From the IMG/VR virus record IMGVR_UViG_3300020045_003119, positions 1 through 25,035 of that record: 25,035 nt of DNA. One strand, given 5' to 3'. Positions 19,147-23,680 of the stretch are shown here, piece by piece (positions within the stretch are counted from its first letter, which is position 1; every line of letters starts with the position of its first letter). Source of the stretch: a virus (lineage: Duplodnaviria > Caudoviricetes). Made by a program: the position numbers and the translations under genes. A model generated the notes under the pieces. That model was given only the letters and a program-made list of their open reading frames with translations, made no database searches and was not told the DNA's origin.

Positions 19147-19177
19147 AATAAAGCCCCGAGTGTTGGGGTTCGGGGCT
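19147..19177 (-). terminator. GC-rich hairpin, possible weak terminator downstream of the tRNA array
   Basis: AGCCCCGA-ACCCCAACAC-TCGGGGCT followed by TTATT. Confidence 0.5.
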
Positions 19178-19341: not shown

Positions 19342-19416
19342 TGGTAGCTTGTAAGAGATTCGAACTCCTATCTTCTGGTTCGTAGCCAAAAATTCTATCC
19401 ATTGAAATAACAAGCC
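19342..19416 (-). tRNA. tRNA-Arg(ACG)
   Basis: GGCTTGT/ACAAGCT acceptor, A20, anticodon arm TTTGG-CTACGAA-CCAGA, TTCGAAT T-loop, encoded CCA. Confidence 0.92.
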
Positions 19417-19424
19417 GTTAATTG

Positions 19425-19497
19425 TACGCCTAGCAAGATTCGAACTTGCAAAATGTGGGTTCTAAAGCCACCGTGTATACCGTTCCACCATAAGCGC
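19425..19497 (-). tRNA. tRNA-Leu(TAG) with atypical short variable region
   Basis: GCGCTTA/TAGGCGT acceptor, A73, Leu-type D arm GTGGAACGGTATACAC, loop TTTAGAA, 5-nt variable region, C31.C39 mismatch. Confidence 0.8.
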
Positions 19498-19503
19498 ATT
19501 TCG

Positions 19504-19577
19504 GGTATTATATGGGATTCGAACCCATATAATCGGATTCACAGTCCGACCGCCTTACCATTAAGCGCAATAACACC
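19504..19577 (-). tRNA. tRNA-His(GTG)
   Basis: G-1:C73 pair, GTGTTAT/ATAATAC acceptor, TCGGA-CTGTGAA-TCCGA anticodon arm, ATGGG-TTCGAAT-CCCAT T arm. Confidence 0.92.
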
Positions 19578-19586
19578 ATATATTTG

Positions 19587-19657
19587 TCGATTTATCTGGA
19601 TTCGAACCAAAACAACGAAAGTCAAAGTTTCGTGTGCTACCATTACACCATAAATCG
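19587..19657 (-). tRNA. tRNA-Gln(TTG)
   Basis: CGATTTA/TAAATCG acceptor, GTGT/GCAC D stem, CGAAA-CTTTGAC-TTTCG anticodon arm, TTCGAAT T-loop. Confidence 0.9.
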
Positions 19658-19660
19658 CAC

Positions 19661-19746
19661 GTACATTGTGCATCCGTTACACCATATCCCGCAAATCTTA
19701 ATATTGTTTAGGCGGGGCAACAAGATTCGAACTTGTTCCTATGTAC
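19661..19746 (-). ncRNA. Circularly permuted tRNA-like element without an anticodon loop
   Basis: The 3' half (GTACAT-AGGA-ACAAG-TTCGAAT-CTTGT-TGCCCCG-C, 19746-19712) precedes a 19-nt linker and the 5' half (G-CGGGATA-TG-GTGT-AACGGAT-GCAC-A-ATGTAC, 19692-19661). The halves are complementary in both the acceptor and anticodon stems. Confidence 0.65.
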
Positions 19747-19749
19747 TCG

Positions 19750-19824
19750 TCGGGGTAACTGGATTCGAACCAGCGAACCGTAGATTCCAAGTCTACGTTG
19801 TATATCCATCTGCATAACACCCCG
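19750..19824 (-). tRNA. tRNA-Pro(TGG)
   Basis: CGGGGTG/TACCCCG acceptor, A73, GTAGA-CTTGGAA-TCTAC anticodon arm, GCTGG-TTCGAAT-CCAGT T arm; weak D stem. Confidence 0.88.
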
Positions 19825-19857
19825 AAATAAAAAAGCCTCCCGATTATGGAAGGCTTT
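19825..19857 (-). terminator. Intrinsic terminator immediately upstream of the tRNA array (candidate attenuator)
   Basis: AAAGCCTTCC-ATAATC-GGGAGGCTTT (10 bp, one G.U) followed by TTTATTT, abutting tRNA-Pro nucleotide 1. Confidence 0.8.
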
Positions 19858-19883
19858 AAGCTAAATATATTTTGTTCACTATA

Positions 19884-19949
19884 CTATACGCTTGTTCCTC
19901 CCATAAAATAGGTATGCGGTAAGCGTTGAAGTAAGTTTAAATTTGTTTT
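19884..19949 (-). pseudogene. 3' part of an IS-interrupted 22-aa leader peptide (MKTNLNLLQRLPHTYFMGGTSV); its ATG is at 23642-23644
   Basis: Removing the IS and one TSD copy restores ATG AAA ACA AAT TTA AAC TTA CTT CAA CGC TTA CCG CAT ACC TAT TTT ATG GGA GGA ACA AGC GTA TAG. Confidence 0.7.
19897..19906 (-). promoter_or_regulatory. Candidate antiterminator strand
   Basis: TTATGGGAGG can pair (10 bp, one G.U) with CCTTCCATAA at 19853-19844, which is the terminator 5' arm plus loop. Confidence 0.65.
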
Positions 19950-19990
19950 GGTAACTATATACAACTTTGCAGAAAATAATTGACAAATAA

Positions 19991-20021
19991 TTTGTTTTAC
20001 TGCAATTAAGTTCTATCTTTG
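19991..20021 (+). promoter_or_regulatory. Bacteroidetes-type promoter for the transposase
   Basis: TTTG (19991-19994), 19-nt spacer, TATCTTTG (20014-20021). Confidence 0.7.
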
Positions 20022-20043
20022 TATCAGCAAAACGATAGAAATT

Positions 20044-20949
20044 ATGTTTAACAAAGAAGTAAAATCAGTTTTAGACCTTATCCAAGCCTTTCCAACGGAG
20101 CAATCTTGCATCGAGCATTTGGAATTAATCAGATGGAACGGTAAAGTAGTAAGCCCTTTTGATGCTACTTCTAAAGTTTACAAAACTAAAGTAGGCTACC
20201 AATGTAAAAATACTGGTAAAAACTTCAATGTAAAAACTAACACAATCTTTGACAATACTAAATTGCCATTAGTAAAATGGTTTTTAGCTATTTGGATTGC
20301 TACTTCACATAAAAAAGGAATTTCATCTTTGCAATTAGGGCGTGATTTAGATATTACTCAAAAATCTGCGTGGTTTATGCTACAAAGAATCCGTCAATGT
20401 TTCGGAATCGAAAACGATAACCAATTAGATAACGAGGTTGAAGTTGACGAAACATTTGTAGGTGGTAAAGACGAAAATCGTCATGCTGACAAAAAAATGA
20501 AAGGTAGTCAGGGCGGTGCAAACAAAGAAATTGTTTTAGGAATGGTTGAGCGTGAAGGGAACTTAGTTGCAAAACACATTTCTGACCGCAAAGCATCTAC
20601 ACTATCGCCTGAAATCTACGAAGCGGTATCTTTGACTGCAAAACTTTATACAGACGAACACGTAGGCTACAAATCGCTTAAAAGAGTTTATGACCATTCA
20701 GTTGTAAAACATAAAGCACGCCAATACGTTAATGGTCGTGTACACACAAATACAATCGAGGGTTTTTGGTCGTTGTTGAAACGCGGTGTTTTTGGAATTT
20801 ATCACTTCACATCTAAAAAACATTTACAGTTATACGTTGACGAGTTTGTATTTAGATACAATAGTCGTAATATTACTTCTGAAATGAGATTTGATTTGAT
20901 GCTAGGAAATATGGAAAATAGATTAACTTATAAAATGCTAATAGGATAA
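20044..20949 (+). CDS. IS1595-family (ISXO2-like) DDE transposase
   Basis: Degenerate Zn-ribbon N-terminus, KKGISSLQL HTH, VEVDETFVGG, YTDE..GY, HTNTIEGFWSLLKR and YVDEFVFRYN motifs. Confidence 0.95.
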   Translation: MFNKEVKSVLDLIQAFPTEQSCIEHLELIRWNGKVVSPFDATSKVYKTKVGYQCKNTGKNFNVKTNTIFDNTKLPLVKWFLAIWIATSHKKGISSLQLGRDLDITQKSAWFMLQRIRQCFGIENDNQLDNEVEVDETFVGGKDENRHADKKMKGSQGGANKEIVLGMVEREGNLVAKHISDRKASTLSPEIYEAVSLTAKLYTDEHVGYKSLKRVYDHSVVKHKARQYVNGRVHTNTIEGFWSLLKRGVFGIYHFTSKKHLQLYVDEFVFRYNSRNITSEMRFDLMLGNMENRLTYKMLIG

Positions 20950-21935
20950 TGGCTAAACACAATATTATAAAAATTGACAATCATAACATATCAATGTTTT
21001 CGGAGGGAGATAAAGATTTGATATGCCTAACAGATATTGTAAAAACTCAAGACGGGGATTTCTTTATAAGTGATTGGCTAAGAAACGCTAACACTTTAGA
21101 TTATATTGGAGCTTGGGAGCAGATTTATAACCCTGATTTTAATTATGGCGAATTCGCCATAATTAGAAGTGGCGCGGGTTCAAACACTTTTAAGATAAGT
21201 GTTAAAGAATTGATAGACAGAACTAATATCATAAGTATTAGAGCTACTGCTGGAAGATATGGAGGTACTTATGCGCATAAAGACATTGCATTTAACTTTT
21301 GCATGTGGATTAGTCCTATATTTCAATTATACATTGTAAAAGAATATCAACGCCTAAAAGAAATTGAATCTAATAGTTATAACTTAGAATGGGATGTTAG
21401 ACGAATTATGACAAAAGTTAATTATGCTTTACATACAGATGCTGTTCAAAAGTTTGTAATCCCCAAAAGCGTAAAGCCTTTAGATAAACAACATTTTGAG
21501 TTTGCCGAGGAAGCTGATATACTAAACATGGCTTTATATGGATATACCGCTAAACAATGGCGCGATGCAAACCAAGACCATGCATCTAATAATAAAAATA
21601 TGCGCGACTTTTCTAGCATAACAGACTTGCTTATAATGTCAAATTTAGAAACTTTAAGCGCGCAGTTAATTCAAACAAACTTGACTAAACAGCAACGATA
21701 TGCATATCTTAAAAAGATGGCTGACGAGCAAAAAGTACAATTTGAAAAAATCGATATTGTAAAGTCAATTAAAAAAGCTAAGCCAGACACTTATTTGAGT
21801 ATTGAAAACCTTTCGCACGATGAGATTGAAGCAGAATCAAAAAAAGATATTTTAGAGGCTAACAGGAAAGCATTATCCGACTTTAATCAAAAACTACACA
21901 AAGGGTTGAATTTTGATCCTAACGCTAAGGATTAA
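20949..21935 (+). CDS. KilA-N domain protein (IS passenger)
   Basis: ICLTDIVK...ISDWLRNANTLDYIGAWE...AGRYGGTYAHKDIAFNFCMWISP motifs; TAATG-coupled to the transposase. Confidence 0.9.
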   Translation: MAKHNIIKIDNHNISMFSEGDKDLICLTDIVKTQDGDFFISDWLRNANTLDYIGAWEQIYNPDFNYGEFAIIRSGAGSNTFKISVKELIDRTNIISIRATAGRYGGTYAHKDIAFNFCMWISPIFQLYIVKEYQRLKEIESNSYNLEWDVRRIMTKVNYALHTDAVQKFVIPKSVKPLDKQHFEFAEEADILNMALYGYTAKQWRDANQDHASNNKNMRDFSSITDLLIMSNLETLSAQLIQTNLTKQQRYAYLKKMADEQKVQFEKIDIVKSIKKAKPDTYLSIENLSHDEIEAESKKDILEANRKALSDFNQKLHKGLNFDPNAKD

Positions 21936-21938
21936 AAA

Positions 21939-21966
21939 TAAAAAAACCACTCATTTAAAGCGGTTT
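21939..21966 (-). terminator. Hairpin terminator between convergent IS passenger genes
   Basis: Minus strand AAACCGCT-TTAAATG-AGTGGTTT followed by a T tract. Confidence 0.55.
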
Positions 21967-22181
21967 AGTTTTTCCTGTTTGAAAAATGCCTTGTTTAAAA
22001 AAGGACATTTAAAGATAAGATTTTCGTTTTAAAATATTATTGATTAACCATCAATAATGTCGTTGGTGCGTGTTTTCATAATTTGCTGTTTTTTGTTTTT
22101 AGAATACCTGTATGTTTAATTTCAGATATGTTGCACTGTTTAGACAAAGTCAAAGATAAGACTTTGATTGAGAAAAACAAG

Positions 22182-23126
22182 TTAATCTTTTGATAAAAGT
22201 AAAATAAATCCCTGTTTCTGAAATATAAGCCCGCTATATTCTGCTTTCAACCTTCTAGAATCTTTGGTAGGTTCCCGCCAGTCAAGCGTCCATTCATTTG
22301 TTACTCCACATTCTATAAATTTTACATTTATCTCTTTGGGATAAGTAAAGTCAATAAAAAAGTTTTCATATATCCATACAGCCCTATGTTGCCTAAAATT
22401 ATTTGTCTTTAAGTGATAACGCTTTTTGTCTACCCTAACAATTTCGTATTGTAGTTTTTCAGACACAGGAAACTCGTAAATAACATTTAAAAATTCAGCG
22501 TCTCTAGTAATGTTAGTGCGGTTATCGGCTAGTTTCTGTTTATTTATTTTAAAATCAATAAGTTCGTATGTTGTGTAGCCATTATCATTAGGCGGTAATG
22601 GGATTTTGTTTTTCAATTTTACCGTAATTGGTTTTACATCGTCTGTAATTAATGTAGATTTAGTTGTTTCTTTCACAATTACATATTCTGGATTATCGGG
22701 GTCAATTTCTATAGTAATGTCTAAATTGTAATTCTTATAATAATAATCGTGTTTAATAGGTAAATAGAATGATTTAACGCCATTATAAAGCTTTTCACTT
22801 ATTAGTTTAAATTTTTGGTTACAAAGTGCCTTGGTAACTTTAACCCATAATGTTTCTAAATCATTCCTGTTTTTTAAATCCTCGTCCCCATATACAATTT
22901 TTCTAAGTTCATCTTGAAACATCGAGGAAAACTGTTCGGATTTTAGAATCACCGCAAAGACGCCACCCGATATCATAGTATATCCTAAAGTCTTAAATAT
23001 ATCATACCATATAGATTCTTTATCACATCCTGTGTAAGCTATAGATAGCGAAACTAAAGCAACAAGAGCTATAAAGTATAAAATGTATGATTTTATAAAA
23101 TGTATTAGAGGGTTTATGTATTTCAT
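22182..23126 (-). CDS. Uncharacterised protein with two N-terminal TM helices and a beta-rich soluble domain (IS passenger)
   Basis: 314-aa ORF with hydrophobic segments at about aa 14-32 and 43-61, lying inside the IS inverted repeats. Confidence 0.75.
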   Translation of the reverse strand: MKYINPLIHFIKSYILYFIALVALVSLSIAYTGCDKESIWYDIFKTLGYTMISGGVFAVILKSEQFSSMFQDELRKIVYGDEDLKNRNDLETLWVKVTKALCNQKFKLISEKLYNGVKSFYLPIKHDYYYKNYNLDITIEIDPDNPEYVIVKETTKSTLITDDVKPITVKLKNKIPLPPNDNGYTTYELIDFKINKQKLADNRTNITRDAEFLNVIYEFPVSEKLQYEIVRVDKKRYHLKTNNFRQHRAVWIYENFFIDFTYPKEINVKFIECGVTNEWTLDWREPTKDSRRLKAEYSGLIFQKQGFILLLSKD

Positions 23127-23400
23127 TTTTTAAATATTAAATTATTTCAAAAGAATATATAGCCACACCTATTGGCGTAGATTTTAAGAAATTTAGTAAG
23201 GAATTTTTGCTTGCTTTACGTCAAATATAATAATTCTTGCGAATGTTCAAAATAAATCAATAAATTATTGCCTTTATCGTGATAAAAAGTAGTAATTACC
23301 ACTAACGAATATTTTAAAATTAAGTATTTCTACTTAAAAATCATTTTATGTATTATAAAGGTAGATTAAAAAATTGTTTATTTATATTTGTAAAAAATAA

Positions 23401-23565
23401 GCAACCGTTCCGTCAGGCGCACAGATGCCGAATTTTAAACGGTCGCCCCTATTCCGAATGCTGTTAGCGGATGTTACGCAGAACGTCGTTAAACTATCTT
23501 TAAACAGTAATTCAAAACAAATTCGTTACCGATTGCAGAGGTAGCAAAAGCCGTTTAGCGTTTCT
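23401..23565 (+). ncRNA. Candidate structured RNA near the IS right end
   Basis: GC-richer island after a TATATTTG -7 box (23383-23390). Nested complementary segments: 23401-23409/23438-23446, 23487-23494/23553-23560 and 23494-23501/23537-23544. Confidence 0.35.
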
Positions 23566-23648
23566 AAAAAAATGATGAAATAAGCATTAGTTTAAAAACC
23601 GTTTTCGCTACTGCAAAGTAATATATAGTTACCTTTGTTTTCATACGG

Positions 23649-23680
23649 CAATATTACAACCTTATTTTCAATCTACCAAA
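23649..23680 (-). promoter_or_regulatory. Bacteroidetes-type promoter of the leader/tRNA operon (probably leaderless)
   Basis: TTTG (23677-23680), 20-nt spacer, TAATATTG (23649-23656, one mismatch to TAnnTTTG), then CCGT-ATG. Confidence 0.6.

Follow-up and report, generated by a model that had tools for sequence, protein, structure and literature searches.

A 25,035-nt virus fragment (Duplodnaviria; Caudoviricetes; IMG/VR record IMGVR_UViG_3300020045_003119, positions 1 to 25,035; hereafter the window, meaning this whole stretch) carries on its minus strand a block of five tRNA genes whose leader region is split by an insertion sequence (IS). The split region is a copy of a conserved phage unit that is probably a ribosome-mediated attenuator, switching the tRNA operon on when the codons matched to its tRNAs are decoded slowly. 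An earlier note on this DNA had proposed such a unit of promoter, leader, terminator and tRNA genes, interrupted by the IS and working by his/trp-type attenuation. All of its coordinates hold, and the attenuation logic is supported by conservation, by covariation in both helices and by leader codons that track tRNA content, with the switch from stalling to read-through itself modelled.

The unit begins after the endolysin gene, where a Bacteroidota sigmaA-type promoter-like site (23649-23680, minus strand) combines TTTG at 23680-23677 with TAATATTG at 23656-23649, 20 nt further on. The leader start codon, ATG (23642-23644), follows TAATATTG by 4 nt and is now severed by the IS from the remaining leader, codons 2-22 and the TAG stop (19884-19949). 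Removal of the IS and one repeat in silico yields a 22-codon open reading frame (ORF) with its stop at 19884, ending 29 nt before the terminator stem. In Flavobacterium, 5.5% of mRNAs are leaderless (PMC9723704). Because the -7 box of Flavobacterium promoters spans -12 to -5 (PMC9723704), the A of the ATG would be +1, and the leader ORF is predicted to be leaderless, with transcription starting at that A.

The rebuilt ORF contains exactly five codons that start with C: CTT at 19931, CAA at 19928, CGC at 19925, CCG at 19919 and CAT at 19916. They fall within sensor codons 8-13 (Leu, Gln, Arg, Leu-TTA, Pro and His; 19914-19931) and, as the earlier note had observed, name each amino acid of the downstream tRNAs once. 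Across 24 of the window's phage ORFs, all five codon classes occur together in none of 4655 six-codon windows and in 31 of 4295 windows of 21 codons. The antiterminator strand (19897-19906) pairs over 10 bp with the 5' arm and loop of the terminator, a pairing already claimed and here computed as a duplex of -14.4 kcal/mol. The intrinsic terminator (19825-19857) has a 10-bp stem, a 6-nt loop and a U tract, and abuts the first of the predicted tRNA genes: tRNA-Pro(TGG) at 19749-19824, tRNA-Gln(TTG) at 19586-19657, tRNA-His(GTG) at 19503-19576, tRNA-Leu(TAG) at 19424-19497 and tRNA-Arg(ACG) at 19342-19416, all on the minus strand and all with A37. A GC-rich hairpin about 165 nt past tRNA-Arg (19150-19177, minus strand), which the terminator scan did not call, is a possible end of the operon.

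Pattern scans of sequence and one BLAST match recovered 18 different leaders that lack the IS and precede a Pro-Gln-His block, with the layout kept. Six of these relatives came from a pattern that required leader features, and the other 12 were picked on tRNA features alone; the leader is present in all 12. The distance from leader stop to stem is 27-31 nt in 18 of 18 leaders (17 IS-free and the window), and in 17 of 19 family members 4 nt separate the promoter box from the ATG. A short conserved leader ORF precedes an intrinsic terminator in this family, in the window genome only with the IS removed. Loss of the leader or antiterminator in IS-free homologues had been named as one observation that would sink the proposal; leader, antiterminator and terminator are all kept.

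The yield of the scans differed by pattern. The leader-feature pattern gave 48 matches, 12 of them with a tRNA-Pro 127-144 nt downstream. An exact 17-nt leader pattern in viral contigs returned five matches, none with tRNAs; the antiterminator-to-terminator pattern returned a single, unrelated match; and a His-Leu tRNA pattern had no match in genome contigs. A terminator plus Pro(A37) pattern matched in 14 genomes, about as many as the 13 of the reversed control, among 301 genomes of the family of Flavobacterium microcysteis (genome G013); the block of tRNAs reading C-starting (CNN) codons was not found there, and the listed matches did not resemble tRNAs.

Covariation was assessed on an alignment of 10 copies, with the structure taken from the window copy. 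Pairing is kept at 90% in the antiterminator helix, where 8 changes are two-sided, and at 96% in the terminator helix, where 13 are. The covariation score of each helix was reached by 0 of 500 shuffles, which ignore relatedness, and slid controls scored far lower. Column 127, in the shared 5' arm, changes jointly with both its antiterminator and its terminator partner. The compensatory changes that the earlier note had called for are thus present in both helices, and together with the duplex test they describe two mutually exclusive structures on one shared strand.

The codons of the leader follow the tRNAs behind it. All five C-start classes are sampled by 15 of 18 leaders (window included). 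Among the 16 complete units, two truncated ones having been dropped, a Glu tRNA and a GAR codon occur together in seven, are both absent from eight, and dissociate once, with the codon only and never the tRNA only (p=0.0014 in a Fisher test that ignores relatedness). Several relatives carry further tRNA blocks with their own matching leaders, of UNN and RNN type: leaders rich in Tyr, Phe, Leu, Ser, Trp and Cys (or Asn) precede tRNA blocks for those residues, and blocks for Ala, Lys, Ile, Gly, Asp, Thr and Val sit behind other leaders.

The same relation was found in a leader-blind set of at least 234 viral loci, selected on a single feature, a T run with a tRNA after it. Among the matches listed, 138 are terminator-plus-tRNA units, and in 107 of these 138 an ORF of 10-45 codons ends with its stop 20-40 nt upstream of the stem, compared with 113 of 914 control anchors. 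Grouped into 35 single-linkage clusters, the leaders draw 33% of their residues from the unit's own tRNA set, versus 23% after shuffling, a match reached by 0 of 20,000 permutations; three of the 35 clusters show no leader-tRNA match at all. Individual loci are explicit: in L411 five consecutive Gln codons precede three Gln tRNAs, and in L392 seven Leu tRNAs follow a Leu/Ser leader. The placing of cognate codons was examined in the 52 units that have a clear duplex and no more than ten amino acids: their share is 46-53% between 30 and 12 nt upstream of the antiterminator and 14-22% over the first 24 nt from its start. In 67 leaders merged by a looser criterion, pairing with the own terminator arm reaches -12.5 kcal/mol, versus -8.1 when swapped. 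Arg codons keep to the box of the anticodon (13/4 vs 0/8, p=0.0005). Sensor codons are matched to downstream function, and the covariation of codons with tRNA content suggested earlier as a check holds within the family (Glu) and in the blind set.

The proposed switch was modelled by folding with a ribosome footprint. In the window, an A site anywhere on codons 8-13 leaves the antiterminator unobstructed (codons 8-12 if the footprint is lengthened), and from codon 14 onward the ribosome masks it. The antiterminator is on in all 19 copies with the ribosome at the first C codon and in 18 with the ribosome at the last, and it is off in 17 once the stop codon is reached, so that the geometry of stall and passage is present in the model, with 2 of 19 copies failing at the stop codon. 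In an intact unit, transcription and translation would begin at the same A, and a ribosome passing codon 13 would cover the antiterminator, allowing the terminator to form, so that no tRNA is made. Should Leu, Gln, Arg, Pro or His tRNA fail, the ribosome would stall on codons 8-13, the exposed antiterminator could pair with the terminator 5' arm, and polymerase would read into the five tRNA genes. Fresh tRNAs would then relieve the stall, closing a feedback loop.

Several observations weigh against this mechanism. A ribosome at the stop codon would leave the antiterminator uncovered in Maribacter phage Panino (L006) and in L146. The full window transcript at equilibrium prefers the terminator (0.99), and read-through would therefore depend on folding kinetics, with the antiterminator forming first. 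The one-to-one correspondence of codons and tRNAs in the earlier note stands for the window copy and fails in relatives, where codons are repeated and the Arg codon is missing from 3 of 18 leaders. The link between a Leu(TAA) tRNA and a TTR codon is weak: both occur in 4 units, neither in 7 and the codon alone in 5. The disregard of relatedness in the Fisher tests is itself a point on this side. In the blind set, a leader is the best partner of its own arm in only 14 of 67 units, and the Leu and Ser codon boxes do not clearly follow the anticodon.

Part of this evidence could also be read as a general translation-stress switch, in which the terminator opens whenever translation of the leader slows or fails (through antibiotics, host shut-off or weak coupling) and matching codons serve only for tuning. 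The Anabaena trn operon, induced by translational stress, offers a precedent (PMC8421152; PMC10272220). The upstream protector (1:2) helix ranges from -2.5 to -10.4 kcal/mol in 19 copies (-6.0 in the window) and is not consistent; the untranslated state is off in only 5 of 19 modelled copies, the antiterminator winning without a ribosome in 14. A general switch is nonetheless unlikely, since codon identity tracks tRNA content down to the presence of Glu and the Arg codon box, and since each block has a separate leader, features superfluous in a general sensor. The operon could also be constitutive, or be opened by a timing signal or by a phage antiterminator, a common kind of protein, with the leader as a dampener or relic. 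Such control leaves unexplained the compensation in the antiterminator helix, the fixed stop-to-stem distance and the cognate codons just upstream of the antiterminator, and is quite improbable. A chance match noticed after the fact in an AT-rich stretch, or an artefact of removing the IS in silico, would draw on the need to rebuild the unit across 3.7 kb and on the 31 windows of 21 codons that also hold all five classes. Natural IS-free copies exist, however, and in contigs from three of four public runs (three studies) position 19879 directly adjoins 23634, the IS being absent and the short side 26 nt long; the four were examined from 24 public runs, which contain at most 12% of the sequence words. 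The blind-set statistics hold as well, and with the family codon and covariation tests they largely refute this explanation, which is very hard to sustain.

TrmD methylates G37 after G36. The window's five tRNAs are the G36 set, and all five carry A37; housekeeping G36 tRNAs have G37 throughout in G013 and in the examined part of genome G014, and tRNA-Pro(TGG) has G37 in 30 of 31 Flavobacteriaceae genomes. A37 is found in 90 of 91 CNN-reading tRNAs of the phage family, some search patterns having selected A37 for His, Leu or Gln and none for Pro or Arg. A37 was also considered as a mark of gated tRNAs and rejected, with 72 A to 55 G among gated and 42 to 31 among ungated tRNAs (p=1.0); a special link between A37 and gating is weakened because A37 is equally common in ungated phage tRNAs.

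Loss of TrmD methylation stalls ribosomes at CCN, CGG and CUA codons and opens leuL and ilvL (PMC8384417). Phage tRNAs with A37 would be independent of TrmD, and they might escape a nuclease, as do the tRNAs of PMC10264068. Cleavage of host tRNAs, their depletion or lack of charging, and loss of 1-methylguanosine 37 (m1G37) are all candidate triggers by inference; tRNA loss through host defence is our first choice among them.

The trpL, hisL, pheL and thrL leaders are leader-peptide attenuators of amino-acid operons. Unlike these, the phage unit has tRNA genes as its output, so that the product is the thing sensed; it also samples five codon families, has a leader predicted to be leaderless and shows no consistent upstream protector helix. 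No Rfam amino-acid leader family matched at its gathering cut-off, Phe_leader reaching 26.8 bits versus 55 and over the terminator part only. The E. coli leuL and ilvL attenuators, of the same class, resemble the unit in design: they combine a short ORF of sensor codons with alternative antiterminator and terminator, stalling leads to read-through, and both react when m1G37 is lost, at CUA and CCA-CCG codons (PMC8384417). Mycobacterial polycysteine short-ORF attenuators (bioRxiv 10.1101/834739) share a leaderless sensor ORF with codons matched to downstream function; they free a ribosome-binding site in the translational control of cysteine genes, whereas the phage terminator gates tRNA genes.

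Two further systems resemble the unit in its cargo. The Anabaena trn operon (PMC8421152; PMC10272220) is likewise a spare tRNA array induced under translational stress; it is controlled by the repressor TrcR, and neither "attenuat-" nor "leader" appears in the accessible text of PMC8421152. Nuclease-evading phage tRNAs (PMC10264068) also differ from the host in the anticodon loop, as A37 differs from G37 here; the accessible text of that paper gives no regulation, with no occurrence of "attenuat-", "leader" or "promoter". A full-text literature search, covering few subscription papers and no supplements, returned no description of an attenuator gating tRNA genes, and the earlier note had likewise known of no such sensor for phage tRNAs. 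The proposed mechanism is that of a known leader-peptide attenuator, and its use on tRNA genes is new.

What phage tRNAs are for is an old question, and the current answer is that they replace tRNAs cut by host defences. No published control mechanism was found for this idea; a leader that lists the tRNAs supplies one that can be tested, and its codons turn a genome into a readout of the tRNA shortages that the phage is equipped to sense. A wider proposal is plausible, if a little short of probable: that a modular tRNA homeostat operates in many phages and in some Flavobacteriaceae chromosomes, with per-block attenuators that refill only the tRNAs that have failed and a CNN block that is a sensor and bypass for attack on G36-G37 tRNAs. 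Under such a homeostat, the CNN block would sample the G36 tRNAs that have G37 in the host and supply A37 versions, the attack would be by nuclease or by loss of TrmD methylation, and leader codons would predict the tRNAs destroyed by undiscovered host defences. Maribacter phage Panino, with two units, and two Flavobacteriaceae genomes with similar units put bench tests in reach.

The relatives themselves vary in arrangement. Three-block arrays that divide the code by first base (CNN, UNN, RNN) occur in L306, L307 and L220; in L306 and L307 the CNN block runs convergently to the other two. The cultured phage Panino (L006, 2590-5500) has two leader-gated tRNA blocks and a permuted tmRNA (RF04321), and its tRNA region adjoins a large gene annotated as a tRNA methyltransferase. 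Two bacterial genomes, Flavobacterium microcysteis (G013; L318, 1200-1905) and G039 (L619), show the leader-terminator-tRNA layout, and in the L619 array every G36 tRNA has A37. The long gene after the L318 array has a sub-threshold Prok-RING_4 match only; its identity as a TROVE protein was not supported. In L171 and L172, ARAGORN calls a second Pro(tgg) as fifth or fourth tRNA where relatives have Leu(TAG); the gene is probably an unusual Leu tRNA that was miscalled.

Terminase, helicase, primase-like and lysis genes are encoded on the record, a linear virus fragment of 25 kb. Its host is probably a Flavobacteriaceae species, because Flavobacteriales supply most of the transposases closest to that of the IS (70-74%) and, of the cultured phages, Panino matches best at the DNA level. 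The IS (19950-23633, plus strand) belongs to the IS1595 family: it has a transposase (20044-20949, plus; PF12762, DDE_Tnp_IS1595), 23-nt terminal inverted repeats (19950-19972 and 23611-23633, 91% complementary) and an 8-bp target duplication, whose identical direct copies lie beside the promoter (23634-23641) and within the leader (19942-19949). The insertion suggests a prophage stage. Two passengers accompany the transposase. A KilA-N protein (20949-21935, plus) matches the PADLOC candidate defence model PDC-S22 (E 7e-106), and a gene for a 314-residue protein with an N-terminal hydrophobic stretch (22182-23126, minus), which now lies downstream of the phage tRNA promoter, has no match in Pfam, PHROG or PADLOC. 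The terminator scan placed a terminator-like hairpin inside the IS at 21966-21944 (minus).

As the genome stands, the split copy is probably disabled, being off or uncoupled, because the IS puts 3.7 kb between promoter and sensor, and the promoter now faces the IS. In this allele the ATG at 23644 opens a 26-codon frame that runs into the IS end, and the sensor frame lacks an ATG; the IS end supplies it with a TTG only, at 19964. The IS also has a perfect TAnnTTTG at 20188 that points towards the operon, which was considered and dismissed as chance-level. That the window copy works as the earlier note described is therefore unlikely.

The gap between tRNA-Pro and tRNA-Gln is filled by a permuted tRNA mimic (19658-19748, minus), whose fold is that of a tRNA with swapped halves: a T arm, a closed acceptor-like stem and a D arm, with no anticodon loop. 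Fold z-scores are weak on their own (-1.6 in the window, and -0.4), and an ARAGORN test with halves swapped back matched L223 only, with none for the window or L210. The same layout recurs with different sequences and short shared end motifs in L617/L210, L223, L606, L607, L608 and L610. No Ro60/TROVE match was found among the 14 window proteins scanned in this 25-kb fragment, and the Rfam YrlA model (RF02553) matched neither the window (E<=5) nor L617 or L223 (E<=1). The arm order of YrlA is present in the element all the same: YrlA Y RNAs (RF02553; PMC4201824) likewise place an acceptor-like stem-loop between T and D stem-loops. Unlike them, the window element lacks an Rfam match and occupies a tRNA slot of an operon.

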